A stretch of 61,702 nt of DNA from the IMG/VR virus record IMGVR_UViG_3300045919_000415, positions 1-61,702 of that record; one strand, written 5' to 3'. The stretch comes from a virus. Lineage: Duplodnaviria; Caudoviricetes. Positions 6,441 to 41,006 of this stretch are shown in pieces. A program made the position numbers and the translations under genes. The notes beneath the pieces were generated by a model. The model was not told the origin of the DNA. It did no database searches and saw only the letters and a list, made by a program, of their open reading frames with translations. The stretch's first letter is position 1; every line of letters starts with the position of its first letter.

Positions 6441-6453
6441 ATACACAACAAAC

Positions 6454-6894: not shown

Positions 6895-6908
6895 GTTCGT
6901 GGCTCCTA

Positions 6909-7118
6909 TTAAGGTTGGGTGTTCAGCGTGGCCAGCGTGGTGGTCGGCGCAGCGGTGTTGGCACCGCCGGCAGTTACGCCACTGTGGACATGCGTGTTCA
7001 ATTGCGTTTGAAGCGCGGCCAGATCGATGCGCAGGGACTCAATCATCTGGTAGAGATGATATTGTTTCTGTCCCGGCTCAATCGAGCTGTTGATCCGCTG
7101 CTTGACTGATTCAGCCAT
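6909..7118 (-). CDS. Small virion protein
   Basis: 69 aa with GGAG RBS, NTHVHSGV motif, follows capsid gene. Confidence 0.55.
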   Translation of the reverse strand: MAESVKQRINSSIEPGQKQYHLYQMIESLRIDLAALQTQLNTHVHSGVTAGGANTAAPTTTLATLNTQP

Positions 7119-7167
7119 TTGATTCTCCGGTGAATTGAGGCCGGTGAGACTACCCGGCCTCAGTCAA

Positions 7168-19228: not shown

Positions 19229-19230
19229 GA

Positions 19231-20697
19231 TCAGTATCCCACCTCAGTGTCCAGCACCCCGAAGCTCGGGACGGTTATGTGTCGTTGCATCTTCTGCGCC
19301 TTGACTGCGGTTGCTTCATCCTTCGTCTTCGCGAAGCGCTTCATCATGATTGCGTAGCGTGTCGCGGACAGCACGTCGTCAAATTCCTTGACCAGACGCC
19401 CATCCTTGCGGTGGTACTGCCTGAACTCATCGAACCATGGAGCGAGGTGGCTGAACACCTTGAGCCTGCCTGTCTGCATGCGGTCGAGCATCTCAGCGAT
19501 GCCGGCCTCCACGCCGTTGCTGCCGTTCTCGAACGTGGCGCGGTCCTTCAACATGTTCAAGCCTTGGTCCTTGTACAGCTGCATCAGCTGCTCACCTGAA
19601 CCCTTATCGTGTTGCAAGCCGTCGTGGGGCCATGCCACGGGATACCAGTCCCCCTTGGCACGGATCACCATCGCGTGCTCCGGGACAGATTTCTTCTTCA
19701 TCACGTACACGTCGTAGACGTACAGCGTGTCGGTGTCGCGGTCCCACGCCATCCACACGGCGGCGGTCGGGTGGTCCCACCCAAAATCGATGCCGATGAT
19801 CTTCGGCCAGTGTGCAGGGATGGCGAAGGCACCTGTCTTGATGCCCGATTCCGTCACCGGGAACACGGCGCCCTCACCCAGCATCGGCACGCCATTGGCA
19901 CGCGCTTCGCGCTCGTGCTCCGGGTATGCGGCGATGATCGATTCGCGCTGCTCCGGTGTGTAGTGCAGCGCGTCTGCAATGGTCATCTGCGTGATGTGCG
20001 TGCCGGCCGGGCGCTCCTGCATGAAGCGACGCACCACGGCCGACATGCCTAGCAGCGGCGTGAACGTCAGCGCCACGATGCCCTGCGTCGCGTTGGTCCG
20101 TGTCAGGCCTTCGGTGTACAGGTCGAGCGGCGGCTCTTCGTCGAACCACACGTAGTCCAACGTGTCCGCCTGCCACTTGGTCCTGCCTTGGTCGTACGAC
20201 TGCAACTGGATGACGCTGTCCTCGCCGCAGCTGTGGCGCACCACGATGCTGGCCACCGCGTCAGGCACGCCGGGTCGTAGCGCCGTGGACCTCAGGGCCG
20301 CCTTCGGCAGGTAGCCCGTGCCCCACTGTTCACGCTCTTCAGGTGAGCCCAGCAACAGGCGCTGAATGCCCTTCTTCGTCAGCTCGGCAGACTCTGACCC
20401 TGCCATCGACCTGATGGCGTAGGGGAAGCGTCGACCGGTCCACCACTTCGGGTACACGCCCGTGGCATGCATGGACAGCTCCGCAGCGCCGCTCACGGTC
20501 TTGCCGAGCTGATTGCCAGCGGAGAAGAGGCGCTCCCGCGCTGCTGCTCCGGCGGCATGGAACTCCACCTGCTTCGGGTAAGGCTGGTACAGCGCAAGGC
20601 GGTTCTCGCGTTGCTTCTGGTGCTTGGTCTGCAGCACCGCGAGCAGCTCGCGACGCTCAGCGGGTGTCAGGCTTGTCAGGTCAACCGACTGGCTCAC
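19231..20697 (-). CDS. terL: Terminase large subunit (P22-like)
   Basis: Walker A AGNQLGKT, Walker B VWFDEE, TFTP, nuclease GIDFG and DD.LSA.RYA. Confidence 0.95.
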   Translation of the reverse strand: MSQSVDLTSLTPAERRELLAVLQTKHQKQRENRLALYQPYPKQVEFHAAGAAARERLFSAGNQLGKTVSGAAELSMHATGVYPKWWTGRRFPYAIRSMAGSESAELTKKGIQRLLLGSPEEREQWGTGYLPKAALRSTALRPGVPDAVASIVVRHSCGEDSVIQLQSYDQGRTKWQADTLDYVWFDEEPPLDLYTEGLTRTNATQGIVALTFTPLLGMSAVVRRFMQERPAGTHITQMTIADALHYTPEQRESIIAAYPEHEREARANGVPMLGEGAVFPVTESGIKTGAFAIPAHWPKIIGIDFGWDHPTAAVWMAWDRDTDTLYVYDVYVMKKKSVPEHAMVIRAKGDWYPVAWPHDGLQHDKGSGEQLMQLYKDQGLNMLKDRATFENGSNGVEAGIAEMLDRMQTGRLKVFSHLAPWFDEFRQYHRKDGRLVKEFDDVLSATRYAIMMKRFAKTKDEATAVKAQKMQRHITVPSFGVLDTEVGY

Positions 20698-21287
20698 AGG
20701 TCCACCGTGCGGGCTTCGTCGATGATGTGCTGGTTCATCGCCTTGCCTAGCAGCTGTTGCAGCTTCAGGTCAACCTGTTCATCGGTGAGCGCCACGGTCG
20801 TGTTGACCTGCACTTCGCGTTTGGCCTTGTACACGTCGATCAGGCGCTCCACGACGAACTGCCGCGACTTGACCCGCAACGTGGCCCGCTGAATCTCGGC
20901 CATGCCTGCCTTGGCTGGCAGGTCGTCACCAATGCTGATGATTTCCTCTGCGTATGCCTGCGCACGTCGGCCCAATGCGTTGACGTAGCGGCCATACATC
21001 GCCGGGTCGGCGTCGCACATGTCGTTGAACGCATCCGCTGTGAGCCCATGCGTGCGGCACGATTCAGCCAGCGTCGCGCCCTCGCCGATGCTCTTGCACA
21101 CCTTTTCGACCCACTCGGCGCGCTCTTCCACGGCGAAGTCCATGAGGCGTGAGCGCATGCGCTCTTGCAGCGACTTGCCCACCTGTACGCGTCGTGCTTT
21201 CTTCAGCGATGGCGGCGCACCAGTGAGCGGTGACACCGTGGTGAGCGTGTCCCCTGCGTTAGCTTGGCTGTGGGCGTGCTTGGCCAT
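20694..21287 (-). CDS. terS: Terminase small subunit (Sf6 gp1-like)
   Basis: HTH plus AEEIISIGDD...IQRATLRV..RQF; immediately upstream of terL. Confidence 0.75.
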   Translation of the reverse strand: MAKHAHSQANAGDTLTTVSPLTGAPPSLKKARRVQVGKSLQERMRSRLMDFAVEERAEWVEKVCKSIGEGATLAESCRTHGLTADAFNDMCDADPAMYGRYVNALGRRAQAYAEEIISIGDDLPAKAGMAEIQRATLRVKSRQFVVERLIDVYKAKREVQVNTTVALTDEQVDLKLQQLLGKAMNQHIIDEARTVDL

Positions 21288-21297
21288 GTTGCGACGC

Positions 21298-21483
21298 TTA
21301 AATCTTCCCAGGCTTCACATCGGCCGTGAACCCGGGAATGTTTTTCAGCGCGCCGGTGCCTTTGCCTGCTTCGACGGGATAGCTGTCCGCCGGAATCTTC
21401 TGCGTGGGGATGCTGACCTTGCCGTCCACTACACCTTTGGTGCTGGGGTTGCGGCTGGCCTTGGGGCTTGAGAAGTTCTGCAT
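21298..21483 (-). CDS. Small basic hypothetical protein
   Basis: 61 aa with GAGG RBS. Confidence 0.55.
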   Translation of the reverse strand: MQNFSSPKASRNPSTKGVVDGKVSIPTQKIPADSYPVEAGKGTGALKNIPGFTADVKPGKI

Positions 21484-21510
21484 GGTTGCCTCTGTGTAGG
21501 TGTTGCGGGG

Positions 21511-21951
21511 TTAAACCTGTGAGCCCGGGGCGACGATGCTGCGTGTCTGCCCTTGGCGCTTTTTCGCTTCCTGTTGCCACATCGTGGACATGTCGGGAAT
21601 GTCAGCACTGTCACTGGCGCCTTCGCCTTGATCCTCGGCGCCGGTGTCGCCGGCTTCGGTGTCTTCGTCGGCAGCGGACTCGTTTTGCTCCGTGCCATTG
21701 ACGCACTCGGTGATTTCCTCGAGCGCCTCGTCGAGCGATGCGGCGTCTTCGTCGCAGAGCACTTGACCCTTGAGCGTGACCATGACGTGACAGCTGCCAT
21801 CGGTGCCGACGTGGATGATCGCCTTGTAGGTGCCCGGCTGCGCGCTGCCTTGGCTTTGATCTGCATCTGTCTGTGCGCCTGCACTCGGATCAGCCGGCGT
21901 AGGGGCTGCGCTGGCGGATGACTGTGCCGCTTGATCGAAGGGGCTTGACAT
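21511..21951 (-). CDS. Acidic hypothetical protein (first gene of late operon)
   Basis: ATG 21951 with AAGGA RBS. Confidence 0.55.
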   Translation of the reverse strand: MSSPFDQAAQSSASAAPTPADPSAGAQTDADQSQGSAQPGTYKAIIHVGTDGSCHVMVTLKGQVLCDEDAASLDEALEEITECVNGTEQNESAADEDTEAGDTGAEDQGEGASDSADIPDMSTMWQQEAKKRQGQTRSIVAPGSQV

Positions 21952-22072
21952 GTGGGTTCCTTGGGTTCTGTTCACGTTTGCCCGCTGTTCATGGAACGTG
22001 AACAGCGCGGGGAAGTGAACACTTTGTGAGGCGTGGAGGCTGGGAAATGCAGACGAAATTCGGGCGAGGTCG

Positions 22073-22101
22073 ATGATAGCTTGTGAGGCTAGCAAGCACA
22101 A
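22073..22101 (-). promoter_or_regulatory. Putative sigma70 late promoter
   Basis: TTGTGC-17 nt-TATCAT on the minus strand upstream of the structural operon. Confidence 0.5.
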
Positions 22102-22130
22102 GTGGGCGAAACATGCAAGGAAAATTGTAT

Positions 22131-22196
22131 TAGGGTTTACCCTTATACTGTTACAACATTTTACAATTTATTCCTGCAAAACCTAGGGTTTACCCT
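22131..22196. promoter_or_regulatory. Two TAGGGTTTACCCT dyad boxes (22131-22143, 22184-22196)
   Basis: Identical 13-mers containing AGGGT-N2-ACCCT, 53 bp apart, in the AT-rich divergent intergenic region. Confidence 0.6.
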
Positions 22197-22225
22197 GTAG
22201 ACGTCGATGTCTACACCTGTAGAAT
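22196..22225 (+). promoter_or_regulatory. Putative early promoter with overlapping operator
   Basis: TAGACG-16 nt-TAGAAT; near-perfect palindrome TGTAGACGTCGATGTCTACA at 22196-22215. Confidence 0.5.
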
Positions 22226-22240
22226 TCGAGCTTCAGTACC

Positions 22241-22423
22241 GCAGTTCAGCAACACGCAGTGACCTGATGTCGACAGGGAATTCGACAGAGTAGGTTGGCT
22301 GGTTTGTGTCAACGTACTCGACGGCTTGGACTACGAGGGATGCAGCGCCCCGTACGATGCCCGACTGGACCACCGGCTCACGCCGCCGGTGACGCATCAC
22401 TACACTGCCTGTTGCTGAGCTGC
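22241..22423 (+). ncRNA. Structured multibranch 5' leader RNA of the early operon
   Basis: 29-nt arms 22241-22269 and 22395-22423 pair (25 pairs including one G-U) and enclose several hairpins. Confidence 0.6.
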
Positions 22424-22463
22424 GTTGCTCAACACCTCCTCCCCCTACCTATGGAGCAATGCC

Positions 22464-22904
22464 ATGAACACTGTCGATATCACCGCCGCACACGTTGAAT
22501 CCCTGAAGGCCCGCCTCAAGGCTGCGAAGGACGAGCAGAAGGCTGCCGTGACTGAAGCCAAGGTGCATGCCAAGGCGCTCGCTGCAGCGAACAAAGCTGC
22601 AGACGCCGCAGGCAAGAAGGTCGGCAAGCAGGCTGTCGTGATCAGCAACCTGACCGCGCAACTCGCCGCCCTCAACAATGCCATGAACAATGCCGATATC
22701 ATCGCCGCACACATTGAATCCTTGAAGGCTTGGTGTCTTTCGAACTACGAACACGGCGCCGACGTGATGGTCGAATGCTGGGCCGATGAGGACTTCCGAT
22801 CGCTGCTCGCCTCATCAACGGACTACGCCGACGCGTTGTCCACCCTGATGGGCGTGGCTGCGGTCTACCGTGATCAGCGAGCCGACGCTCGCAACTCTTG
22901 GTAG
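22464..22904 (+). CDS. Early protein with duplicated N-terminal module
   Basis: GGAG RBS; MNTVDITAAHVESLKA repeated internally as MNNADIIAAHIESLKA. Confidence 0.7.
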   Translation: MNTVDITAAHVESLKARLKAAKDEQKAAVTEAKVHAKALAAANKAADAAGKKVGKQAVVISNLTAQLAALNNAMNNADIIAAHIESLKAWCLSNYEHGADVMVECWADEDFRSLLASSTDYADALSTLMGVAAVYRDQRADARNSW

Positions 22905-22907
22905 TCA

Positions 22908-22959
22908 GGACGAAACCGCCGGGAGGCGGTCCGCACGTGACGCGTGCGCTGATGAGTCC
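22908..22959 (+). ncRNA. Type II hammerhead ribozyme HHR1 (predicted cleavage after C22931)
   Basis: GGAC-GAAA-CCGCC(GGGA)GGCGG-TC-CGCACG(TGACG)CGTGCG-CTGATGA-GTCC. Confidence 0.93.
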
Positions 22960-22985
22960 AGCAGCACTCACTCTGGGGCAATGTC

Positions 22986-23216
22986 ATGAAATTCTGGGTC
23001 ATTCAAAACGCTCAAGGCAGCCCTTGTGGCTGCGAGCTCACGAAGGCGGCTGCAATCGAAACCGCGCGCAAAGAGGGGAACAGCGGCTTCTCGCTCCGTT
23101 GGTTGGATATCCCCGTGTCGAGCGAATCTATCCGACTCATCCTCGGAAACGGCGGTGGCTACGCCAACGAAGTGGGTAGAACGGAAGATTTCGATCCGGT
23201 GGGAGAATCAAAGTGA
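22986..23216 (+). CDS. Hypothetical early protein
   Basis: 76 aa, first gene after HHR1. Confidence 0.65.
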   Translation: MKFWVIQNAQGSPCGCELTKAAAIETARKEGNSGFSLRWLDIPVSSESIRLILGNGGGYANEVGRTEDFDPVGESK

Positions 23217-23392
23217 ACGGTTACATCTGTTTTTACAAAGACAAACGTGTTGAAGTCCACGCCGACTCAGCGTATGCGGCGCAGTGTGCGGTCGCTAAAG
23301 CTCTTCGCGTGTCCGATAAGAACCGCTGGAAAATCACCGTTTGTCTTGCCGAACGCTCAACTGGTGAGACCGTCGTGCACACTTTTCAATGA
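23213..23392 (+). CDS. Small early protein (59 aa, not in the ORF track)
   Basis: GTG start with GGGAG RBS: MNGYICFYKDKRVEVHADSAYAAQ...ETVVHTFQ. Confidence 0.7.
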   Translation: MNGYICFYKDKRVEVHADSAYAAQCAVAKALRVSDKNRWKITVCLAERSTGETVVHTFQ

Positions 23393-23401
23393 GGAACCAA
23401 A

Positions 23402-23680
23402 ATGAACGCCGTCCAATATCGTAAATATCGTAAGACGTGCATGACCCTTGCCGGCAAGATCGCCGAACAGATCGCCGCCCTCCCCGAGGCTGAGCGCTTC
23501 GGTGCGATCGTCGGAATTTTCAAGGCGGCCAGCAAGTCACCATCCCTTCGGGGTGACGTGTTCTGGACGCTCGACAACGAGCCCGGCCACTGGGATCACC
23601 TGAAGGGTTGGCACGGCGTGTTGCGCCAAGTGCGCAACACGCCGAGCGAAGGCACCAAGCTTTTCGCTCTGTTTTCGTAA
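23402..23680 (+). CDS. Hypothetical early protein
   Basis: 92 aa, GAGGA RBS; stop abuts HHR2. Confidence 0.65.
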   Translation: MNAVQYRKYRKTCMTLAGKIAEQIAALPEAERFGAIVGIFKAASKSPSLRGDVFWTLDNEPGHWDHLKGWHGVLRQVRNTPSEGTKLFALFS

Positions 23681-23683
23681 TCA

Positions 23684-23735
23684 GGACGAAACCGCCGGGA
23701 GGCGGTCCGCACGTGACGCGTGCGCTGATGAGTCC
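23684..23735 (+). ncRNA. Type II hammerhead ribozyme HHR2 (cleavage after C23707)
   Basis: Identical to HHR1. Confidence 0.93.
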
Positions 23736-23760
23736 AGAAGCACTCGCCTGGAGCAATGCC

Positions 23761-24234
23761 ATGTTTTCTTTCCCTCTTCACCCGAATGTCAGCGCTGGTG
23801 ACCTGAATGTTTTGGACCGGTTCCAAAAAAATCCGGCAGGATACAAATCCAGCACGGGCTGGTGCATTTTGTCGGCGTTTCGCAAGAGCAGCACGGGCTC
23901 GCAAAACGTGTTTGCCAGCACAGCGCTGGCGTACCTGCTGACCGCGCAGGGATACGCGTTTGATCGCACGGTCGGTGTGTACGAAGGCGAAGACCCTGAG
24001 CCCGGGTATCTGATCATTTGCGACAAGGCCAAGGCTATCTTCCTCGGTCACGGTCTCGGGCAAGAGTCGGTGTTAACGTCCGATGGGCTGGTGTATACGG
24101 ACAACAGCGGCCGAGACCCGGTGCCGTTCGACCACGGTCACACCGACCTGCTGGGCGCAGCTGCGGAGCGGGAGCCTTTTTATACCCACTTCCCGACGAC
24201 TGGGGTGTCGTGGTCTGCTCACCTGTTGTTTTAA
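23761..24234 (+). CDS. SAM lyase (T3 SAMase-like) anti-restriction protein
   Basis: ILSAFR...N...GVYEG...E...GQESVL...GLVY...FYT mirrors T3 SAMase motifs (VSAFR, GCYRE, EE, EQDCVL, GLVY). Confidence 0.72.
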   Translation: MFSFPLHPNVSAGDLNVLDRFQKNPAGYKSSTGWCILSAFRKSSTGSQNVFASTALAYLLTAQGYAFDRTVGVYEGEDPEPGYLIICDKAKAIFLGHGLGQESVLTSDGLVYTDNSGRDPVPFDHGHTDLLGAAAEREPFYTHFPTTGVSWSAHLLF

Positions 24235-24238
24235 GCAA

Positions 24239-24290
24239 GGACGAAACCGCCGCGAGGCGGTCCGCACGTAACGCGTGCGCTGATGAGTCC
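24239..24290 (+). ncRNA. Type II hammerhead ribozyme HHR3 (cleavage after C24262)
   Basis: GGAC-GAAA-CCGCC(GCGA)GGCGG-TC-CGCACG(TAACG)CGTGCG-CTGATGA-GTCC. Confidence 0.93.
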
Positions 24291-24313
24291 AGACCGACTT
24301 TAGGAGAATCAAA

Positions 24314-24601
24314 ATGCGTGGATATGAAGACATCGTGGCCGGCAACGCTCGCGCCCAATCCCTCGGGATCGAACTGCCGGCAGGCGCCATCGGCACCGAC
24401 CCCCTGCAGTCCAAGGGCCACAGCGCCGTGCAAGGCGGCCTGCGTGGCCACTCGTTGGGCCACGATTACCCGTTCACGGTCAGCAAGATCGGCGATCGCT
24501 ATCAAGCCTATCACTGCTTGCACCCGGAACAGTCGGGCCCGGCAGTCGACACCTACGCGGAGGCGAAGGCCTTCATCGCCGCCGCGCATCTGGGGCATTA
24601 A
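24314..24601 (+). CDS. Hypothetical early protein (single-gene cassette)
   Basis: 95 aa, AGGAG RBS, between HHR3 and HHR4. Confidence 0.7.
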   Translation: MRGYEDIVAGNARAQSLGIELPAGAIGTDPLQSKGHSAVQGGLRGHSLGHDYPFTVSKIGDRYQAYHCLHPEQSGPAVDTYAEAKAFIAAAHLGH

Positions 24602-24605
24602 GCAA

Positions 24606-24657
24606 GGACGAAACGCCCGCGAGGGCGTCTGCCGGTTTCGCCGGCACTGATGAGTCC
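24606..24657 (+). ncRNA. Type II hammerhead ribozyme HHR4 (cleavage after C24629)
   Basis: GGAC-GAAA-CGCCC(GCGA)GGGCG-TC-TGCCGG(TTTCG)CCGGCA-CTGATGA-GTCC; compensatory changes in stems I and III. Confidence 0.93.
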
Positions 24658-24677
24658 AGCTCGACTTTTAGGAGAGA

Positions 24678-25031
24678 ATGATGGCAAAGATTACGAACAA
24701 ACAAGTGCGCAGCGCCGTGGAGTCCCGCACGGAATTCAGCAATAAAACCGGCTCGTTGTACGGCGGCTGGCCTTACCCGGGCGTCTATGCCGTGAACAGC
24801 TACGGTCCGTGGTGGCCCCTGTTGGTGTACGTAGAGGCCGAAACCCAATGGTATGTCAACGTGACCCATCACAGCGCTACCACCAATCTGCACCGCAAGG
24901 CCGCATACCCGCGCAGCGAGAAGCCAATCATCGAGCTCACGTTGTCGGAAATCGATTCGTTGCTGGACGGCTTTCATGCGGCCGACTGTGACGCTCGCAA
25001 TGCCCGTAACGCCGCACGGGGGGAAGCATGA
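24678..25031 (+). CDS. Hypothetical early protein
   Basis: 117 aa, YAVNSYG..WPL...HSATT..H motif. Confidence 0.7.
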   Translation: MMAKITNKQVRSAVESRTEFSNKTGSLYGGWPYPGVYAVNSYGPWWPLLVYVEAETQWYVNVTHHSATTNLHRKAAYPRSEKPIIELTLSEIDSLLDGFHAADCDARNARNAARGEA

Positions 25032-25360
25032 AACTGCTCAACGCTTTTTCCCTTTCGATGCTGCCCGAATTCCGGGGCCGCGTCACCGTAGTGCGGCTCA
25101 CGCTGGAGGATGTCAAGCTCGACTTCGACGAAGAGCCGATAGAGTCTTTCGTTGGACACGCGGATACCGCCGCATTGTTTTCCGCCCTGATTGGCAAGGA
25201 AGTCGCTTGCCGTCGGGAGTCGGTCACCCTTCAGCCGGGAGAGCAGGTTTGGGTGGGCCAGTACACCGGCCCGCGTTTGCCAGAAGGCAGCAAGACGCTG
25301 CCGGAAGGCGCAAGCGTCGAATGGCTGTTTGTCACCGTCGACCGCGTCAACGAATCGTAG
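25028..25360 (+). CDS. acrIII-1: AcrIII-1-family viral ring nuclease (DUF1874, STIV B116-like)
   Basis: LLNAFSLSML, SFVGHADTA, RxxVTL.PG, GPRLPEG family motifs including the GH catalytic His. Confidence 0.85.
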   Translation: MKLLNAFSLSMLPEFRGRVTVVRLTLEDVKLDFDEEPIESFVGHADTAALFSALIGKEVACRRESVTLQPGEQVWVGQYTGPRLPEGSKTLPEGASVEWLFVTVDRVNES

Positions 25361-25369
25361 GAGATTTGA

Positions 25370-25744
25370 ATGAAAACATACATCAATTCATATTTTGGCC
25401 AGATCAAGGGTGTTTATTTGTCACCTGCTGATGCTGGATTCGGATTCGCCGAAAGGGCTATTGCGTACCTGTCCACTGATGGGACGTTTCTTGGTTACGA
25501 ATACCAGGATATAAAGAAGTACAACTCATACGAGCGTCAAATGCTCGTTGTTGGCAGGGCCCGTGTAGGAACCCAGTTGGATGATGAGCGCCGAGGAGCA
25601 GAGTTGTCTGTAGAAGTTAAGGATAAGTTGTCTTCGGCCCTCAAGGCCGCTCAAGATGAGCAACAAAGGAAGATTGCTGAAGAACTTGCGCAATTGAATG
25701 CGCAGACTTTCGATGTTTATGGCAACGAGGTTAATAATGGATGA
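25370..25744 (+). CDS. Hypothetical protein, lower GC
   Basis: 124 aa, AGGAG RBS. Confidence 0.65.
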   Translation: MKTYINSYFGQIKGVYLSPADAGFGFAERAIAYLSTDGTFLGYEYQDIKKYNSYERQMLVVGRARVGTQLDDERRGAELSVEVKDKLSSALKAAQDEQQRKIAEELAQLNAQTFDVYGNEVNNG

Positions 25745-25922
25745 ACCCATCGTTTTGCGGGCAAAGGAAGCCACTGTTTCAATGTCTCCAATGGATAATT
25801 TTGACGACACTTTTTTCGTCAGCATCGGAAATCCGGGATGTTCCATTTATTTCGGCCTGACTGAAGCGGAGTTGCGCAAGTTGCTGGACAACATCAACAA
25901 GCTGTTGGAGGTGTCGGCATGA
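25737..25922 (+). CDS. Hypothetical protein
   Basis: ATG 25737 with GAGG RBS. Confidence 0.55.
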   Translation: MDEPIVLRAKEATVSMSPMDNFDDTFFVSIGNPGCSIYFGLTEAELRKLLDNINKLLEVSA

Positions 25923-26116
25923 TTACCGACAACGACGGATACCTGTTTAGCCGTGATCCTGACGCGCCGGTCATTGCTGAGCGACTTGAACACGCGATGT
26001 GGGCATTGCAAGGGGCACTCAGCGCGATTCCTGCCGGTCATCCAGAGCGCCAGAAGATCGAGCGCGAACTCGAAATGATCGACGCCACCCTCGCCAAAGC
26101 ACGGGGGCAAGCATGA
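25919..26116 (+). CDS. Hypothetical protein
   Basis: 65 aa, GGAGG RBS, ATGA coupling. Confidence 0.6.
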   Translation: MITDNDGYLFSRDPDAPVIAERLEHAMWALQGALSAIPAGHPERQKIERELEMIDATLAKARGQA

Positions 26117-26223
26117 GACGCCTCTGGCCCGAAGTTCTCGCCTGCCTTTGCTTTGTTCTGTCGCCGATCCTGTTCGCTTGGCTGGCGATGTGCCTCGCCG
26201 AAATCGCACGCGGCACCTATTAA
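26113..26223 (+). CDS. 36-aa single-TM membrane peptide
   Basis: MRRLWPEVLACLCFVLSPILFAWLAMCLAEIARGTY; its TAA abuts HHR5. Confidence 0.55.
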   Translation: MRRLWPEVLACLCFVLSPILFAWLAMCLAEIARGTY

Positions 26224-26275
26224 GGACGAAACGCCCGCGAGGGCGTCCGCACGTGACGCGTGCGCTGATGAGTCC
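26224..26275 (+). ncRNA. Type II hammerhead ribozyme HHR5 (cleavage after C26247)
   Basis: GGAC-GAAA-CGCCC(GCGA)GGGCG-TC-CGCACG(TGACG)CGTGCG-CTGATGA-GTCC. Confidence 0.93.
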
Positions 26276-26293
26276 CACTTTTTACTGGAGGAA

Positions 26294-26743
26294 ATGATGG
26301 AACGCTATATCGACCCGGGCGTTGAACAGACGCCCGAATACTACGGCACGCTGCAAGCGATGCCTAACCCCTACTTCATCCCTGCGTGGGTGGTGCATAC
26401 CTTCACGATGTCATGCGGCGCCCCGGTGTGGATCGGGCACGCCGGCAACAAGCCGCCGCACGAAACGTACACGCTGTCCGAGGCCGAAGTGGAGCTCATG
26501 ATCGAGCACAAGGGCGACACCAACACCCTGTCCCGGTTGGTGCGTGATGGGCTCGCTCGCCGTGAACAGGCCTACAACGCCATGCAGGACGCCAAGGCGG
26601 CGTGGATGAGGGCGCCACTGGACGATGCCTCTACACGATTTTTATTGGCACGTTTCCAACAGCTCAGGGCGCTTTACTACCTCGACTTCACATCCCGCCA
26701 AAAGAACGTTTTTGTGGTTGGCGAACGGCAGACATACCCGTGA
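26294..26743 (+). CDS. Hypothetical early protein
   Basis: GGAGG RBS, first gene after HHR5. Confidence 0.65.
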   Translation: MMERYIDPGVEQTPEYYGTLQAMPNPYFIPAWVVHTFTMSCGAPVWIGHAGNKPPHETYTLSEAEVELMIEHKGDTNTLSRLVRDGLARREQAYNAMQDAKAAWMRAPLDDASTRFLLARFQQLRALYYLDFTSRQKNVFVVGERQTYP

Positions 26744-27042
26744 GAACCTACGCCCCCCGCCAACAGTCGCAGTTCGGGGCCAATGCGGCGCGTGCCCACG
26801 GTCCGCTGTACACGACCCAAGAGCTCGCGCTCGCACTGTCCAGCGTCACGCCGGGTTTGACCATGCGTGAGCTCACCTGCTTCATCATGAAACACGCCGA
26901 CACCGTGCCCGCACCGTCGACGCTTTACACCTCGCAGCGTGGCGCCGTCAAGTATTACCCGCTGCACTCATTCATTCGTTGGTACAAGGAAACCTTATGC
27001 AAATCGACCGCGCCTACAGCTGGGCACAAACCGAGCGAATAG
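26740..27042 (+). CDS. Excisionase/AlpA-like winged-HTH protein
   Basis: YTTQELA...P.P...KYYP...FIRWY pattern. Confidence 0.45.
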   Translation: MRTYAPRQQSQFGANAARAHGPLYTTQELALALSSVTPGLTMRELTCFIMKHADTVPAPSTLYTSQRGAVKYYPLHSFIRWYKETLCKSTAPTAGHKPSE

Positions 27043-27212
27043 CCCACGAGCTGCGCATCTCGAACGACAAGGCGCAAGCCCTGCACTACGAGATGGTGCG
27101 TCACGGCTACTTCGACACGACTCTCGTGCCACAACGCTTGATGGAACAGTGGCTTAAAGGGCCAAAGTACGACGTCCCCGAAAGCTTCTACACCCGTTAC
27201 AAACTCGACTAG
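26997..27212 (+). CDS. Hypothetical protein
   Basis: ATG 26997 with AAGGA RBS. Confidence 0.55.
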   Translation: MQIDRAYSWAQTERIAHELRISNDKAQALHYEMVRHGYFDTTLVPQRLMEQWLKGPKYDVPESFYTRYKLD

Positions 27213-27221
27213 GAGAGAATC

Positions 27222-27632
27222 ATGAAACTCGGTTCCCAAACCAACAGCATCGTGAATCACTTGTATGCACGCGGCACAATCGGCCAACCGGACCCGGTGG
27301 TCGGCATGGGTGTCACACTGCTCGGCTGGACTGACCGGAACGCCGGAACGATCCACGCCGTGCGCCTGTTGGCCAGCAAGCAGTGGTCGTGGGAAATCGA
27401 AGTGACCCACGACGCCTCGAAAGTCGTGTCCGGCTCCACGCTCGACGGAACGGCTGACTACGAATACACGCCGCGCCCGGACGGCGCACGCATGGTCTTT
27501 CGATTCAGCCTGAAATCAGGCATGTGGGTATGCGGAAGCATCAATCCAGACACCTCGAAATTCAATGCCAACAAACGCGGAAGTGGGTTGCGAATTGGTG
27601 AACGCGAGTCGTACTACGACCCCACGTTCTAA
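27222..27632 (+). CDS. Conserved phage hypothetical protein
   Basis: 136 aa, PVVGMGVT...WTDR...GxRESYYDPTF; TAA abuts HHR6. Confidence 0.7.
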   Translation: MKLGSQTNSIVNHLYARGTIGQPDPVVGMGVTLLGWTDRNAGTIHAVRLLASKQWSWEIEVTHDASKVVSGSTLDGTADYEYTPRPDGARMVFRFSLKSGMWVCGSINPDTSKFNANKRGSGLRIGERESYYDPTF

Positions 27633-27684
27633 GGACGAAACGCCCGCGAGGGCGTCCGCACGTAACGCGTGCGCTGATGAGTCC
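27633..27684 (+). ncRNA. Type II hammerhead ribozyme HHR6 (cleavage after C27656)
   Basis: GGAC-GAAA-CGCCC(GCGA)GGGCG-TC-CGCACG(TAACG)CGTGCG-CTGATGA-GTCC. Confidence 0.93.
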
Positions 27685-27708
27685 AGACCGACTTATAGGA
27701 GAGACAAC

Positions 27709-27960
27709 ATGATCCTCAAATACAACTCAAGCGTGAAGACGCCAGCGGGATGGCGTAATGTGGAAATCACGGCCACGGCAGAACGGGTCAGCAAGGGCAT
27801 GGCCTTGGTCACGCACATCAGTGCGATCGATGGCAAGCCGCTTGCCTACGACATGACGCGCACAGGTGCACGGCGTCAAGAGTTCAACGGCCATTTCTGG
27901 GCTGCCCGACAGGTCGGCACCATGAAGCGCATATCTGCGTGCACCGAGGTGCAGCCATGA
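27709..27960 (+). CDS. Hypothetical early protein
   Basis: AGGAG RBS after HHR6. Confidence 0.65.
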   Translation: MILKYNSSVKTPAGWRNVEITATAERVSKGMALVTHISAIDGKPLAYDMTRTGARRQEFNGHFWAARQVGTMKRISACTEVQP

Positions 27961-28196
27961 ATCACTTTCCACCCCTCTACTACGACGACCCTTACCACAG
28001 CCGGCAGTTCAACACGTGGATTCGCCTGAACTTCCTGTTGGCCTTGTTCGAGCCAGACGCCACTGTGTCGGCTATCGATGCCGGCTACTGCCTCGACGCG
28101 GTGCCGTCCATCCCGCGCGGCGGCATGCACGTCCGTCACATCAGCCGCTGGCTGCGCGCCAAGCCGACCTCGACCCTGATGCGGGACCTGCCATGA
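27957..28196 (+). CDS. Hypothetical protein
   Basis: GAGG RBS, ATGA coupling. Confidence 0.5.
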   Translation: MNHFPPLYYDDPYHSRQFNTWIRLNFLLALFEPDATVSAIDAGYCLDAVPSIPRGGMHVRHISRWLRAKPTSTLMRDLP

Positions 28197-28594
28197 GGGG
28201 CGCCATCCACCATCCGATGCTGGACAAGGCGCTCAGCTCCAAAGTGCAGAAGTTCCTCGCCATGGAGGCCACCGCCGGGATGGTGATGGGGCGCGATCGC
28301 TTCGGTGATCTCGACATCACGTTCTTCGGCCCGGCGTGGGACTTCGAGACCTTGGAACAGGCGCGATTCCATCACGACTCGAACGGCAACACGGTGCTCT
28401 CGACCTTCGAGAAACCCTCCGTCAGCCGGACCAAGGTCGCACTCGACCTGATGTCTGGCAACCCCGGCATGTCGATGCGCGAAGCGTCACGGCGTGCCGG
28501 CATCAACGTCATGGCGGTCTCACGCGCCGTGCGCAGCGCCGACAAACCGCGCTGCCCTCACTGCGGCTCAGTCATTCACCACAAGCCCAGCTGA
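28193..28594 (+). CDS. HTH DNA-binding protein with C-terminal CxxC
   Basis: MSMREASRRAGINVMAVSRAV HTH; CPHCG. Confidence 0.6.
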   Translation: MRGAIHHPMLDKALSSKVQKFLAMEATAGMVMGRDRFGDLDITFFGPAWDFETLEQARFHHDSNGNTVLSTFEKPSVSRTKVALDLMSGNPGMSMREASRRAGINVMAVSRAVRSADKPRCPHCGSVIHHKPS

Positions 28595-29094
28595 CTCGAC
28601 AGGCGTCGCCCCACGGCGGCACCTGTTTCATACTCCTTCTGGTCAATGAGCCCGCGCAACCACCGCGCCGCCTCGTCTCGTCCCGGCATCTTGGGCAGCT
28701 CACGCTGTCCCGTGCCGTGGCAGTAGCCGCAGTCCTCGTCCATGAGCGTCTGCACGTTCGTGCCCGGCAGGTGTCCCTTGCCTCCGCACGCACGACAATT
28801 CCCATCGATGTAATGATCCAGCACCTGCATCACCACCTTGCGTGCGTCCTGCCAGTTAATCACCGGCCCCCACTTGCTGCGACGCAGCTCCCCCTCCAGC
28901 ATCTGCACCACGTCGTGCGCCACGCTGCCGTCCTGCGTGAACTTCAGCCGCCACAGCGCCGCCCCGAGTGGGTTTCGCGCACCCGCCATCCCCATCGCCC
29001 GGATCACATCGATGTCCGACATGTCGTCAAGGTTATCTGACTCGCTCAGATCGCTTGATTCCATCGCGCCCACCATCCTTTCACTTCTTCCCAT
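28576..29094 (-). CDS. Antitermination protein Q-like (Zn finger)
   Basis: AMGMAG..NPLG.ALWRLK, CRACGGKG and CGYCHGTG. Confidence 0.65.
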   Translation of the reverse strand: MGRSERMVGAMESSDLSESDNLDDMSDIDVIRAMGMAGARNPLGAALWRLKFTQDGSVAHDVVQMLEGELRRSKWGPVINWQDARKVVMQVLDHYIDGNCRACGGKGHLPGTNVQTLMDEDCGYCHGTGQRELPKMPGRDEAARWLRGLIDQKEYETGAAVGRRLSSQLGLW

Positions 29095-29178
29095 CTCCTG
29101 CTCCCTCAGAATCGTTTTGGGCTGGCCAGATCGCTCCCAGTTGAACGATCGGACCCTTGTGTGTGGGTTGGGGCCTCC

Positions 29179-30609
29179 TCACCCTTTCAACGCAGCCAAG
29201 AGGCCGTTTTGCAAACTGTGCTTGCCCTGCAACAGGTCCGGCAGTGCCTCCTCCAGCGTGTCCGCCGCGCAAATGACCCGGACCACCACCTGCGCCGCCT
29301 GCGTCCCGTGGCGGTGCAGGCGATCGTTCAGCTGCTCGAAGTGGTCCAAGTCATGCGGGCAGCCGTACCAGACGACATTGTGTCCGGCGGTCTGCAGTCC
29401 GTCCAGACCGTGGCCGCCTTCCTTCGGGTGCATGACCAGCACCTGAAACTTGCCCGCGATCCAGTCCTGCAGCCGGTCAATGCGCCCGGCCCGCTTGCCG
29501 AGGCGCCGCAGAATGGCCTCCCGGTCCGCTGCGTAGCGGTACCCGACCACGATGCCGCCCGCGGTGCCGTCGACAATGTCCTCCAGCGCGTCCAGCTTCT
29601 CGTCGTGCACGTGTGCGACCTGTTTCTCCTGCCCGTGTTCGTCGTACGTGATGACCCGGCCATTGGCGATCTGCAGCAGCTTGATCATCTTGGCCGCCGC
29701 TTCGGGCGTCGCCACTTCCCGGTCACCAATCAACGTGACCAATTCGCTCTTGAGCTCGCGATACATCTCCCGCGCGTCCACGGGCAACTCCACCCACTCG
29801 GCCTTGATGATGAGTGGCGGCAGGTCCAGCCAGTCCTCCTTGCGAAACGCGAAGCAGATATCCGACACCCGCGCGCTCACCCGCGCCGCCGTGTCGTCCT
29901 TCTCCACATATACCGCACGCTGCTGCCCTTGGACCGTGATCAACTTGTCAATCGCCATGAACTGCTTGCGGAAGGCGCCAATGGTCGTGCCGAGGCGCTC
30001 ACCCCCGTCCAACAGTCCGACCGGGAAAAACACATCCTCGATGCCGTTGGCTGCCGGCGTGCCGGTCAGCTGCACCTGCCGCTTGACGAAGTCGCGAATG
30101 GACCGCGCCGCCCGGAACGCCAGACTCTTCTTGTTCTTGAGGTGACGCGCTTCGTCGAACACGACGCCGTCATACGGGAAGTTCACGCCATAGGCCCGCA
30201 CCAGATGCGGGAACTGCTCATAGCTCACCAAGTGGATGCACTCGCGCATCGCCAGCAGCGCCGCCTTGGTCCCGGCCCTGTCCTTCAACGCCAGCACTTT
30301 GCGGCTCTTGTCCTTCGGGTGCGCCACCCGCTGCAGCTGGATGTGGTCCGTGTCGATGATCCGCCAGCTCAGGTGCCGCGTGTGGTCCCACTTCGCGATC
30401 TCTTTCGGCCACGTCAGCTGCGTCACCCGCTTCGGGCTCACGATCAGCCACCGGCTCACCTCGAACCTGTCATGGGCCAGCACGTCGATCGCCGACAGTG
30501 TCGACACCGACTTGCCCAGCCCCGGCTTCGCCCACAACGCGCACGCCGGCAACTCGATCACCTTGTTCGTCATCGTCTGCTGATACGGCCTTGCCTTGTA
30601 TTGGGTCAT
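29179..30609 (-). CDS. SNF2-like DEAD/H-box helicase
   Basis: PGLGKS, FDEA, LTGTP, KLLQIANG, GGHGLDGLQ, QLNDRLHR. Confidence 0.88.
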   Translation of the reverse strand: MTQYKARPYQQTMTNKVIELPACALWAKPGLGKSVSTLSAIDVLAHDRFEVSRWLIVSPKRVTQLTWPKEIAKWDHTRHLSWRIIDTDHIQLQRVAHPKDKSRKVLALKDRAGTKAALLAMRECIHLVSYEQFPHLVRAYGVNFPYDGVVFDEARHLKNKKSLAFRAARSIRDFVKRQVQLTGTPAANGIEDVFFPVGLLDGGERLGTTIGAFRKQFMAIDKLITVQGQQRAVYVEKDDTAARVSARVSDICFAFRKEDWLDLPPLIIKAEWVELPVDAREMYRELKSELVTLIGDREVATPEAAAKMIKLLQIANGRVITYDEHGQEKQVAHVHDEKLDALEDIVDGTAGGIVVGYRYAADREAILRRLGKRAGRIDRLQDWIAGKFQVLVMHPKEGGHGLDGLQTAGHNVVWYGCPHDLDHFEQLNDRLHRHGTQAAQVVVRVICAADTLEEALPDLLQGKHSLQNGLLAALKG

Positions 30610-30908
30610 GCTTTCATCCTCACCAGAAAAAGATTCACACCCTCACGCGTGTCCGCCCATCCCGCCACACACCCCATGCGCGTCAACCGCTCAATCCACC
30701 ACCGCTGAATCCGGCTCGGCGTTTTTCCCGCCTTCTTCAATTCCAGAAACCCTATCCGGTTCCGGGGTATCACAATCAACCGGTCCGGCAATCCATCCCA
30801 TCCCAGCTTGACCGTGAACCCTTTGCGCCGCTTGACCTCCTCCCCGAGATAGTCCTCAAGGTTCAATTCTTTTGTCCCTACAAGCAGATCAAGCATTCCC
30901 TCCCCCAT
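30606..30908 (-). CDS. VRR-NUC domain nuclease
   Basis: GLPDRL...FLELK..G..PS.IQ. Confidence 0.85.
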   Translation of the reverse strand: MGEGMLDLLVGTKELNLEDYLGEEVKRRKGFTVKLGWDGLPDRLIVIPRNRIGFLELKKAGKTPSRIQRWWIERLTRMGCVAGWADTREGVNLFLVRMKA

Positions 30909-30960
30909 CCCTTGTTATCCCCCGTTGCGGCGTCCCTCCGGGAGTCTGTAACCAGTTGTG

Positions 30961-31168
30961 CAATGTCACTACTGTCACTACGCGCGCTATTACTTTATTT
31001 CTCGCGCACGTTTTACCTTTAGAAAAATGGCACGTAAGTAAGTATTCGCGTGTAGTGACAGTACCGACAGTAGCCTCAAAACGGCCAGTTTTTACCGCAT
31101 TGTGAAAAGACCCTACTAGGCTAATGTCGGTACTGTCAGCCATTGTCGCTACTGTCAGTATTGTCACT
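30961..31168. repeat. Cluster of ~9 degenerate 9-bp repeats (AHTGTCRSY) in both orientations; candidate replication origin
   Basis: aatgtcact-actgtcact, inverted pair near 31054-31071, five copies at 31123-31168; AT-rich core. Confidence 0.5.
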
Positions 31169-39559: not shown

Positions 39560-39823
39560 ATGAAGCTGGAGTTTCTCGAACGCGGAAGCATGTACGTTCT
39601 GCCGTCTGGCCGATTGGCCGTGTTTCTCGGGCGCATGGAAACCTTGGTTTCCGACGTCGCACCCAAACCCGGAGCGGTGGTCCAGCAGATCACGGAGAAA
39701 GTGGTCTCGTTCAAGTATGTCGATGCGAAGACCCGCGTGCTCACCAAGGAAGAGGTGAGTTTCAGTTTCGCGGGATTCCGGCTGATCGAGAAATCTGTAA
39801 ACCAAGGCTACCTTCATGATTGA
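39560..39823 (+). CDS. Hypothetical protein
   Basis: 87-aa coupled ORF. Confidence 0.5.
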   Translation: MKLEFLERGSMYVLPSGRLAVFLGRMETLVSDVAPKPGAVVQQITEKVVSFKYVDAKTRVLTKEEVSFSFAGFRLIEKSVNQGYLHD

Positions 39824-40997
39824 AGCTCCGATAGTTTTTCGCGACATCTCCGAGATCCGCGCGCACGCAATTCTCAGTGCGTCGGGTTCCAAGATGTGGC
39901 TGAACTGTCCGCCCTCGGCGCGCCTCAACGAATTCGAAGTGGATGTCGAGACGTCGTACAGCGCCGAAGGCACTAGCGCCCACGACATCGCCGCGCGGTG
40001 GATCAATGACCGCCTGCAACGCGAACTCGTGGACGCGTGGAGCGAGGATGAGCACAAGGTGATCGAGGAGCTGCAGCCGTTCCTCGACTTGTGCTGGGAC
40101 CGCATCACGGCCGCGTACGCGCGGTGCAAGGATCCGGTGATTTATGTCGAGACCAAGCTGGACTACAGCCGTTTCGTCCCCGAGGGTTTCGGCACGCTTG
40201 ACCTCGGCATCATCACGGATGGAACGGCCGAGATTGTCGACTTGAAGTTCGGCAAGGGTGAGGTAGTCGAGTCGTACGAGAACAGCCAGCTGAAGCTGTA
40301 TGCGCTTGGCATGTGCGAGGTTCTCGGGCACCTGTACGACTTGACGGAAGTGACGTATTACATCAGTCAGCCGCGCTTGTTCGAAGATGCAATTCCGCAG
40401 ACCATCAGCGTGGTTGAGCTGTACACGTGGGCTGAAGAAGTGGTAGCACCCACGGCGCAGGTGGCGTGGGCGGGTGGCGGAGAATTCAATCCGAGTCGCG
40501 GTACCTGCCGGTGGTGCAAAGTTGCACCGCGCTGCCGGGCCAATGCCGAGTACCACATGGCGTTGGCGAGACACGAGGCCAAAAGCCCCGATCTCCTGAC
40601 GGATGAAGAAGTCTCGGATGTGCTTGCAAAGGCGGACAGCATCAAGTTGTGGGCGGGCAAGGTCGAGAAATATGCCCAACTACGTGCTGAGCAAGGGCAC
40701 AAGATCCCGGGATGGAAGTTGGTAGAAGGGCGGAGTAACCGCTATCTAACGGATCCCGAAGCCGTGGCGAAGATCTTGATCAGCAACGGGGTTGATAAGG
40801 CGGCGTTGTACGAACGCAGTTTGCTTGGTTTGACTGCGTTGGAAGGTGTTGTTGGCAAGAAGACTTTCGGTGAGCTGGCCAAGGATTACATCGGCAAACC
40901 GAAGGGCAAACCTACGTTGGTCCCTGAAAGCGACAAGCGTGAGGTCTACGTGTTCGAGGCCATTTCGGCCAAGGACGAATTCAAAATTGAAGGCTAG
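39816..40997 (+). CDS. DUF2800 PD-(D/E)XK (Cas4-like) nuclease
   Basis: HAILSAS...W.NCP, EGT.AH, FGT.D, DLKFGKG, NSQLKLYA, CRWC...C, GWKLVEGRS.R. Confidence 0.88.
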   Translation: MIEAPIVFRDISEIRAHAILSASGSKMWLNCPPSARLNEFEVDVETSYSAEGTSAHDIAARWINDRLQRELVDAWSEDEHKVIEELQPFLDLCWDRITAAYARCKDPVIYVETKLDYSRFVPEGFGTLDLGIITDGTAEIVDLKFGKGEVVESYENSQLKLYALGMCEVLGHLYDLTEVTYYISQPRLFEDAIPQTISVVELYTWAEEVVAPTAQVAWAGGGEFNPSRGTCRWCKVAPRCRANAEYHMALARHEAKSPDLLTDEEVSDVLAKADSIKLWAGKVEKYAQLRAEQGHKIPGWKLVEGRSNRYLTDPEAVAKILISNGVDKAALYERSLLGLTALEGVVGKKTFGELAKDYIGKPKGKPTLVPESDKREVYVFEAISAKDEFKIEG

Positions 40998-41006
40998 GAG
41001 CCGAGC

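Follow-up and report, generated by a model that had tools for sequence, protein, structure and literature searches.

Type II hammerhead ribozyme repeats between the early genes of a wetland phage are patchworks of one another

Phage hammerhead arrays have been known since 2011, but, going by the main text of the report that described them, only as RNA-processing sites. Perreault et al. (2011; PMC3088659) found clustered hammerheads on either side of single genes, or of short blocks of genes, in phages and prophages, remarked that the flanked genes vary in identity, and proposed that long transcripts are processed to gene-length mRNAs; in vitro cleavage was reported for three tandem arrangements. 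The word 'recombination' is not used in that main text, nor are hairpin sharing, within-genome concerted evolution or an excess of synteny breaks described in it. The promoter-early stem-loop (PeSL) repeats of T4-type phages (Arbiol et al. 2010, PMC2839356; Comeau et al. 2014, PMC4122927) are proposed as homologous recombination sites at which segments are inserted, deleted or replaced without recourse to a dedicated integrase, and mini-circles are reported.

We analysed a 61,702-nucleotide stretch of DNA (the window; positions 1 to 61,702 of IMG/VR record IMGVR_UViG_3300045919_000415, Caudoviricetes) in which six 52-nt type II hammerheads (HHR1–6) lie on the plus strand between early genes of an uncultured wetland phage. 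As in the arrays of PMC3088659, so far as its main text describes them, the ribozymes are of type II, share one orientation and sit between genes of a phage operon. The likeness to PeSLs, as these are presented in the two reports, lies in small repeated regulatory motifs with a role in expression, placed among genes of a variable phage region, the PeSL genes being non-essential. Whereas a PeSL is a DNA-level promoter-plus-terminator unit, the repeats of the window are predicted self-cleaving RNAs; and whereas indels between 96%-identical phages map to PeSLs and circles have been detected, the indels separating the window from its nearest relative have their borders mostly elsewhere (1/7 at a ribozyme). 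An earlier, sequence-only reading had described the locus as an integrase-free, integron-like cassette array. Its first term is borne out, since no tyrosine or serine recombinase was found in six-frame searches of the whole record with PF00589 and PF00239. Integron arrays and the window have in common a one-directional series of small, mostly orphan genes, a structured repeat between them and a content that varies among relatives. Unlike an integron, the window has no integrase and an RBS for each unit, and any exchange would be general homologous rather than site-specific recombination. 'Integron-like' was overstated, and PeSL-mediated shuffling in T4-type phages, as published, is the closer analogue.

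The assignment of the repeats is supported by several searches. An exact pattern search returned six matches, all on the plus strand, against none in 100 shuffles, and a purpose-built model (R1) run over both strands of the 61.7-kb record found the same six copies and no others. Rfam model RF02276 (Hammerhead_II) matches all six, HHR4 above the gathering score (38.4 bits versus 37) and the other five below it (28–33.1 bits, E 0.007–0.15). The core is in register in every copy (CUGAUGA, GAAA and the cleavage triplet GUC); around it stem II is open and stems I and III are closed by loops, which is the type II layout. All 16 modelled base pairs are 100% paired in the 8 distinct alignment rows (19–52% in slid controls), and 6 of the 16 show compensatory change (covariation). 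We conclude that the six repeats are, by their sequence, intact type II hammerhead ribozymes, with cleavage predicted. Each stands between a stop codon and the next RBS and, by analogy with the family, would cut a long early transcript into messages of one to six genes. The hammerhead is the only repeat family seen between the operon genes by sequence reading and by pattern and model searches; no attC or attI site was seen among them.

All features of the operon are on the plus strand. A promoter-like site upstream of the small genes (22198..22225; consensus scan, 9/12 matches) is the sole match in 21200–31200, but is a weak candidate, as shuffles give as many. Translation of the listed ORFs places gA at 22464..22904; it is coiled-coil-like, has no Pfam or PHROG match and no family, and 3 nt separate its TAG stop from HHR1 (22908..22959; predicted cut after C22931). 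Cassette 1 (22986..23680; g1a, g1b and g1c of 76, 59 and 92 aa) is followed by HHR2 (23684..23735), which is the same as HHR1 over the 52 nt plus TCA and whose 3' leader also resembles that of HHR1 up to the ATG; the two are direct-orientation repeats with 52–58 identical nt. Cassette 2 (g2, 157 aa; 23761..24234) separates HHR2 from HHR3 (24239..24290), and cassette 3 (g3, 95 aa; 24314..24601) separates HHR3 from HHR4 (24606..24657). HHR4 is 92.9% identical over 56 nt to a ribozyme that precedes another gene in the distant relatives L034/L104. Cassette 4 comprises six genes, g4a to g4f (24678..26223), the TAA stop of the last being abutted by HHR5 (26224..26275), which is identical at 51/52 positions to a ribozyme among unrelated genes in contig L207/L208. 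Cassette 5 (g5a to g5d; 26297..27632) leads to HHR6 (27633..27684) and to g6a and g6b (27709..28196), the first genes 3' of it. A homologue of g6a (about 37–40% aa) adjoins a ribozyme in L104 and L011, after or before it. In all, 21 small genes host the six repeats.

Alignment and direct reading confirm the six positions, stem types and flanks given by the sequence-only reading. Stem III is of type A in HHR1 and HHR2, of type A' in HHR3 (the A stem with a GCGA loop) and of type B in HHR4–6, B differing from A by two flipped base pairs (four positions). Stem I is of type x (loop TGACG) in HHR1, HHR2 and HHR5, and y (TAACG) in HHR3 and HHR6; that of HHR4, type z, is a different 6-bp stem. The 5' flanks pair off as TAG/TAA+TCA (HHR1, HHR2), TAA+GCAA (HHR3, HHR4) and a directly abutting TAA (HHR5, HHR6), and a 10-nt 3' flank, AGACCGACTT..TAGGAGA, is common to HHR3 and HHR6. 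HHR6 thus equals HHR5 in its left part and HHR3 in its right part and 10 nt of leader. Two splits of the copies result: {1,2,3|4,5,6}, from four stem III positions, and {1,2,5|3,6}, from the stem I loop and the HHR3/HHR6 flank. Together they yield all four combinations, so a single tree cannot explain both halves; this shows that the copies exchange whole hairpins and are hence patchworks of one another. With six copies, the hybrids fit patches and crossovers alike, HHR3 (A'+y) and HHR5 (B+x) resembling the reciprocal products of A+x and B+y. The caution that the window holds few informative sites was well placed, and the weight of the argument therefore rests on other arrays.

Reassortment of left and right halves is general in phage hammerhead arrays. 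We compared 23 other non-redundant arrays with at least three ribozymes. Eight of them contain copies with one hairpin identical and the other clearly different, and three contain both kinds of hairpin sharing. Stem III is identical in 17/223 within-locus pairs, compared with 37/15964 pairs of unrelated loci (~30-fold), and stem I in 20/223 compared with 5/15964 (~290-fold). Identity over 24 nt of 5' flank stays at background (0.52–0.53) whether stem III is shared or not, and that of the 3' flank is raised only slightly (0.70 versus 0.65). In the array flank comparison, copies with a common stem III never had the upstream gene end in common, and there were no paralogues among the 17 window proteins compared (best E-value 0.034; two were translated in the wrong frame and g5b was left out). 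With upstream flanks not shared and cassette genes not paralogous, exchange, as judged from these sequences, appears to stay inside the ribozyme.

When gene conversion makes dispersed repeats evolve in concert, copies are more alike within a genome than positional orthologues are, and form short-tract mosaics. The nearest relative, L127 (terminase 83% aa), has an identical gene order, is collinear over 11 shared operon genes and carries only three ribozymes, at the places of HHR3–5. These are identical to each other at 51–52 of 52 positions, and the window copies at 46 of 52 on average; the three pairs of positional orthologues agree at only 37–42 of 52 despite collinear flanking genes. Likeness within a genome thus exceeds likeness between positional orthologues, pointing to concerted evolution of the copies. 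The L127 ribozymes carry CUGACGA, a change at position 7 of the hammerhead core, a position described as tolerating any base. Nine of the 21 small genes lack a counterpart in L127; gA is missing there. Homologues were found for g1c alone in cassette 1 (72% aa), for g2 (45%) and g3 (78%), for g4a and g4f, with one unrelated gene in the place of g4b–g4e, and for g5a–c (38–66%) but not g5d. Gain and loss of cassettes with breakpoints in the repeat, looked for in this relative, were largely wanting: the order is the same and a ribozyme is touched by 1/7 well-defined indel borders. L127 has no ribozyme at the HHR2 junction, HHR2 being singly present or absent, and HHR6 lies in the middle of a window-only block, g5d-HHR6-g6a-g6b.

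More distant relatives present another picture. Among members of the wider family to which the window belongs, genes X and Y, both delimited by ribozymes, are arranged X-ribozyme-Y-ribozyme in L104 and L046 and ribozyme-Y-ribozyme-X-ribozyme in L011, with nucleotide homology beginning or ending at the ribozyme edge. Cassette reordering among relatives, as the sequence-only reading anticipated, is thereby found in the wider family, and patch conversion alone does not explain this swap. From L011 to L104, stem types do not follow genes X and Y. The L046 ribozyme that occupies the position of ribozyme b of L104 retains the flanks and the stem II (AGAC/GTCA) of b, and its stem I is b-like, but it has the stem III of L104 ribozyme c; replacement of stem III alone with both flanks retained indicates a patch and not a crossover. 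Between L050 and L057, the common block spans exactly one ribozyme to the next.

With partner-contig ends excluded, 54/63 ribozyme junctions are broken at the nucleotide level, versus 151/367 other predicted junctions, and 77/97 at the protein level, versus 215/490 predicted controls in 13 phage families, the controls coming from a crude gene tiling (about 3–4 of 20 stops in the window are wrong) and related junctions being non-independent. The broken fraction at the protein level is higher at ribozyme junctions in 12/13 families. The test is a correlation between ribozymes and synteny breaks. Homology confined to the downstream side starts at the ribozyme 5' edge in 26/37 junctions, and homology confined to the upstream side continues to the ribozyme 3' edge or leader in 13/22. 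One-sided homology hence ends at the outer edge of the ribozyme, and not near the cleavage site, where crossovers had been placed. The repeats behave as cassette borders, gene content changing there between related phages.

We favour short-patch gene conversion among the dispersed ribozyme repeats as the best reading, with a probability of roughly 60%. Whole hairpins would be copied between ribozymes of one genome, giving patchwork copies, the unit being stem III or stem I, at times with a short 3' leader. Homologous sequence would be transferred non-reciprocally over short tracts, by gene conversion or template switching, with the invariant core blocks GGACGAAAC, GUC and CUGAUGAGUCC as anchors; a patch that takes in a hairpin alone would have only short homology arms, made up of core stretches of 9, 3 and 11 nt and whatever stem the two copies share. 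Since in the type II form each variable stem is a closed local hairpin with core on both sides, an exchange ending in the core would, we propose, always give a paired, working ribozyme, whereas exchanges ending within a stem would be lost to selection. The copies of a genome would thereby evolve in concert. Unlike concerted evolution in general, surviving tract borders would here be set by RNA function, only whole-hairpin swaps between core blocks keeping the pairing.

Along the lines of the sequence-only reading, gene blocks could instead be moved, deleted, duplicated or reordered by crossovers from one ribozyme copy to another, whether in a single genome or between phages that infect the same cell. 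The ribozyme would then be an RNA-processing site and a PeSL-like recombination handle, with the mosaic copies as hybrid junctions that such crossovers leave behind. Such a process would find direct repeats in HHR1 and HHR2, and is consistent with the X/Y swap, the L050/L057 block, the enrichment of synteny breaks at ribozyme junctions, the coincidence of homology edges with ribozyme edges and the near-copy of HHR5 in L207/L208. The phage moreover encodes a PD-(D/E)XK nuclease (DUF2800) and an Enc34-type ssDNA-binding protein, and the PeSL proposal (PMC2839356, PMC4122927) offers a precedent. Against it stand the collinearity of L127 and its indel borders, the mid-block position of HHR6 and the presence or absence of HHR2 alone, as well as stem III sharing that never reaches the upstream gene, the lack of duplicated cassette genes, the L046 patch and stem types that fail to travel with X and Y. 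Population variants in three wetland runs begin inside cassette 4 at ribozyme-free places (25086, 25344–25347 and 25923), and the junction enrichment is a correlation subject to the limits of its controls. The claim that crossovers exchange cassettes is accordingly supported in part, by the swap and the junctions across families, and finds little support in L127; the crossover model as a whole we consider possible but rather unlikely. Patch conversion and crossover are not mutually exclusive, and cassette exchange at these repeats in this phage is plausible.

Gene blocks might also have come from different donor phages, each bringing its own ribozyme in a [ribozyme-leader-gene] unit, so that the types record origins and breaks fall where each imported unit begins, at its 5'-terminal ribozyme. 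Downstream-only homology from the exact 5' edge (26/37) fits this, as do the frequent pairing of stem I type with 3' leader (HHR1/2, HHR3/6, L050, and L007 copies 3 and 4), the HHR5-like ribozyme in an unrelated context and the sporadic occurrence of hammerheads among terminase relatives (3/79 loci searched). We nevertheless regard it as improbable, for it leaves unexplained the greater likeness within a genome than between positional orthologues, the replacement of stem III alone at an orthologous site and stem III sharing despite a different stem I and leader. Most improbable is that no exchange took place, the pattern arising because point mutations recur where sequence space is small and constrained, or by chimeric metagenome assembly at repeats. 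It is true that x and y differ by one transition, that short GC-rich GNRA-loop hairpins recur across unrelated loci (stem III, 37/15964 pairs) and that the public contigs (short word length) break within every ribozyme, so that block order is not confirmable from them. However, turning A into B takes two compensated base-pair changes, HHR3 and HHR6 share 10 more flanking nt, and within-locus sharing exceeds that between loci ~30-fold and ~290-fold for stems III and I. Moreover, in contigs of three DNA runs, single pieces bear A'+y (nearly all of HHR3) and B+z (the whole of HHR4) with no differences, A'+y on pieces 23708–24289 of X1 and X2, which stop one base short of the HHR3 end, and single reads span the 52-nt element.

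The present data add to the description of phage hammerhead arrays the concerted evolution of their copies by hairpin swapping, a type II layout that would make every core-anchored swap functional, and gene-content differences that are commoner at ribozyme junctions than at other predicted junctions. More tentatively, the elements may have a dual use: as RNA, hammerheads would cut the transcript; as DNA, they would be portable homology linkers, kept alike by hairpin-wise gene conversion, through which general recombination gains, loses, replaces and permutes cassettes without an integrase, a ribozyme counterpart of PeSLs widespread in unrelated phage families. Phage early regions are thought to be where anti-defence genes sit. 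If the ribozymes are a recombination substrate, they would provide a simple mechanism for accessory-gene turnover in these regions and would account for flanked genes being 'not constant', as the main text of PMC3088659 puts it. If they are not, the arrays would still illustrate cleanly how RNA structure can shape concerted evolution.

All six 52-nt type II hammerhead ribozymes of the early small-gene operon (HHR1 to HHR6; 22908–22959, 23684–23735, 24239–24290, 24606–24657, 26224–26275 and 27633–27684) were recovered by an exact ribozyme pattern, which matched the window six times, always on the plus strand, and not once in 100 shuffles. The Rfam type II hammerhead model also matched all six, one above its gathering score and five at 28–33 bits, and a model built from the window copies and those of relatives found no seventh hammerhead anywhere in the record. 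Each of the 16 modelled base pairs is intact across the copies and six covary; hence, judged by sequence, HHR1–6 are real hammerheads. Every copy begins 0–4 nt after a stop codon and is followed ~20–26 nt downstream by a ribosome-binding site and start codon, within an operon of ~21 small genes, nearly all without a family. The predicted cleavage positions, from HHR1 to HHR6, come directly after C22931, C23707, C24262, C24629, C26247 and C27656. Inspection by eye for pseudoknot pairing of loop I with the flanks gave just 3-nt complements, and the idea was dropped.

The IMG/VR virus record, analysed whole (61,702 bp), has a CheckV completeness of 100% and contains no integrase, as the sequence-only reading had supposed. 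It encodes the terminase small and large subunits and an SU10-type portal (16970–21287, minus strand), a primase-helicase, a family A DNA polymerase, a DUF2800 PD-(D/E)XK nuclease and an Enc34-type ssDNA-binding protein. The last two adjoin one another (39816–41552) and possibly form a phage recombination module, a candidate without any tie to the ribozyme repeats. One 3252-aa open reading frame occupies 45519–55277 on the minus strand. By terminase, the nearest cultured phages are those of Rhizobium, Xylella and Achromobacter, all at <60% amino-acid identity, and megablast of 20000–32000 against cultured phages gave no match.

Alignment and flank reading showed the earlier typing of the ribozymes to be right throughout, for both flanks as well as for stem III (A in HHR1 and HHR2, A' in HHR3, B in HHR4–6) and stem I (x in HHR1, HHR2 and HHR5, y in HHR3 and HHR6, z in HHR4). 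Two flipped base pairs separate the stem III of HHR1–3 from that of HHR4–6, and the stem I loop divides HHR1, HHR2 and HHR5 from HHR3 and HHR6, with a 10-nt leader adding support for the last pair. All four stem III/stem I combinations are found among the window copies. The accompanying caution that informative sites are few holds for the window alone. In viral contigs the core pattern matched at least 120 stretches, and of 23 non-redundant arrays of ≥3 ribozymes, 8 contain pairs in which one hairpin is identical and the other clearly different; both kinds of sharing occur in 3 of the 23. Identical stem III was seen in 17/223 pairs within a locus versus 37/15964 between unrelated loci, and identical stem I in 20/223 versus 5/15964. 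Since identity within loci exceeds that between loci, convergent mutation is excluded as the general cause of sharing, and the reassortment of ribozyme halves proposed earlier is borne out both by the window combinations and by these other arrays. Elsewhere, one viral contig (L089) carries eleven hammerheads in ~5 kb (2224–7239), ahead of nearly every small gene; no hairpin is identical between any two of its copies.

The exchanged tracts lie mostly within the ribozyme. Across arrays, pairs with a common stem III have 5' flank identity at background (0.52–0.53), and for pairs with a common stem I the gain in 3' flank identity is slight (0.70 versus 0.65), the leader being shared in some of them (HHR3/HHR6 and one pair in contig L050). 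Among 17 translated window proteins there are no paralogues, g4d and g6a having been translated in the wrong frame in that set and g5b left out. The halves do not appear to travel with flanking gene units, contrary to what had been suggested.

The nearest relative is represented by two contigs, L127 and L128, which no comparison made could tell apart, with a terminase 83% identical to that of the window at the amino-acid level (next relatives, ≤70%). The exact stem I x/y pattern had no match in viral_contigs or genome_contigs, and the g3 protein of the operon retrieved no contigs beyond the two already known, so that comparison is limited to relatives no closer than this. The whole L127 genome (60.5 kb) has exactly three hammerheads, at the HHR3, HHR4 and HHR5 junctions. 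These agree with one another at 51–52 of 52 positions but with the window copies at the corresponding junctions at only 37–42; the window copies among themselves average 46/52. Closer likeness within a genome than to positional partners is a signature of concerted evolution.

The two operons are collinear gene by gene, with 11 genes in common at 38–78% amino-acid identity and nine window genes missing from L127. The block gA-HHR1-g1a-g1b is present in the window only and ends at the g1b/g1c junction, and HHR2 differs in presence by itself. Genes g4b–g4e, inside cassette 4 (the gene block between HHR4 and HHR5), correspond to one unrelated gene in L127, the right border falling inside g4e, at most 50 nt from its end. 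An extra L127 gene adjoins HHR5's partner, on one side only, and g5d-HHR6-g6a-g6b is again confined to the window, with the ribozyme in the middle of the block. Only one of seven well-defined indel borders is therefore at a ribozyme. Content differs and order does not, and the placing of cassette breakpoints in the repeat is not supported by this comparison.

More distant relatives (L104, the same as L034; L011, to which L042 is 96% identical; and L046) match the window terminase and portal at ~62–64% amino-acid or ~68–70% nucleotide identity. Mosaic ribozymes recur in this group. Copy b of L011 unites the stem III of copy c with the stem I of copy a; in L046, the ribozyme occupying the position of L104 copy b retains the flanks and stem II of b and has a stem I resembling b's, yet its stem III is that of copy c in L104, a patch restricted to one hairpin. 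Two ribozyme-delimited genes, X and Y, are arranged X-ribozyme-Y-ribozyme in L104 and L046 versus ribozyme-Y-ribozyme-X-ribozyme in L011, and homology edges among the three contigs are at the ribozyme 5' edge. A changed order of ribozyme-delimited genes, such as the suggested reordering of cassettes would give, is seen among these relatives but not between the window and L127. Ahead of the L104 homologue of g6a stands a ribozyme with 92.9% identity to HHR4 (B, z); g6a itself comes after HHR6 (B, y) in the window. In L011 the g6a homologue runs into a ribozyme (4631–4681) and stops at the TAA in the GTAA loop of stem III, its stop codon thus lying inside the hammerhead. In metagenome_contigs, the exact stem I x/y pattern matched only the unrelated L207 (451–502) and L208 (1073–1124), where a hammerhead 51/52 identical to HHR5 has its stem I and the stem of its stem III, with a GCAA loop instead of GCGA. 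This ribozyme sits in a GC-rich, 2.6-kb contig whose genes have no tblastx similarity to the window, and, as HHR5 does, it directly abuts a TAA stop with a ribosome-binding site downstream.

We scored homology across each junction in 111 related pairs from 110 loci with crude gene tiling, excluding junctions where the partner contig ends. At the nucleotide level, synteny breaks at 54/63 ribozyme junctions versus 151/367 predicted other junctions within 2.5 kb, and at the protein level at 77/97 versus 215/490, with control stops partly wrong and orthologous junctions counted in several loci. The ribozyme fraction is the higher in 12 of 13 families (protein level), and controls limited to 40–150-nt gaps gave the same picture in a version that still counted partner-contig ends as breaks. 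Of 37 junctions with homology downstream only, 26 have its start at the 5' edge of the ribozyme; of 22 with homology upstream only, 13 have it extending as far as the 3' edge or the leader. The enrichment of breaks is a correlation, compatible with ribozymes causing the breaks, arriving with imported genes or marking module borders.

Contigs from three wetland metagenome runs (X1–X3) contain the window stretch. They break inside every ribozyme, the repeat exceeding the assembly word in length; no joint linking two ribozymes is among those listed, nor could one be seen in such contigs. HHR3, up to one base short of its end, and HHR4 are each borne out by single pieces. Among the pieces listed for X3, of which ~71% was read, cassette 1 (22935–23707) and most of cassette 5 (26251–27664) are uncovered at a flank depth of 4.6–9; such holes prove nothing and carry no weight here. 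Strain variants in the three runs begin at 25086, 25344–25347 and 25923–25924, places in cassette 4 without a ribozyme. The g4d segment (peak 25717–25917) stands at three to four times its neighbours' depth, which suggests that several co-occurring relatives have g4d in common but differ around it. One X1 contig of depth 2 connects 22973 with 23201, leaving out 22974–23200, most of g1a, with neither end in a ribozyme. In X2, one contig matches the window, over a short overlap, from 24627, the start of stem I z of HHR4; upstream it has another, longer stem III (~8 bp, GTAA loop) and 255 letters that are unrelated. It may come from a strain, or from a different phage, with only the right half in common.

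Perreault et al. 2011 (PMC3088659) describe such arrays and note the flanked genes as variable; the word 'recombination' is absent from the text. In the literature searched, neither hammerheads acting as recombination repeats nor the concerted evolution of hammerheads was the subject of any paper listed. In T4-type phages, published accounts (PMC2839356, PMC4122927) describe modular shuffling mediated by regulatory repeats, the PeSL repeats, for which mini-circles have been sought by outward-facing PCR. Short-patch gene conversion among the copies, with ribozyme function as the filter, is the best explanation of the mosaic. The variable stems of a type II hammerhead are two local hairpins, each bracketed by invariant core, so that a core-anchored patch should always yield a paired ribozyme. 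For this phage, exchange of cassettes at the ribozymes is plausible, its comparative support coming from other genomes.
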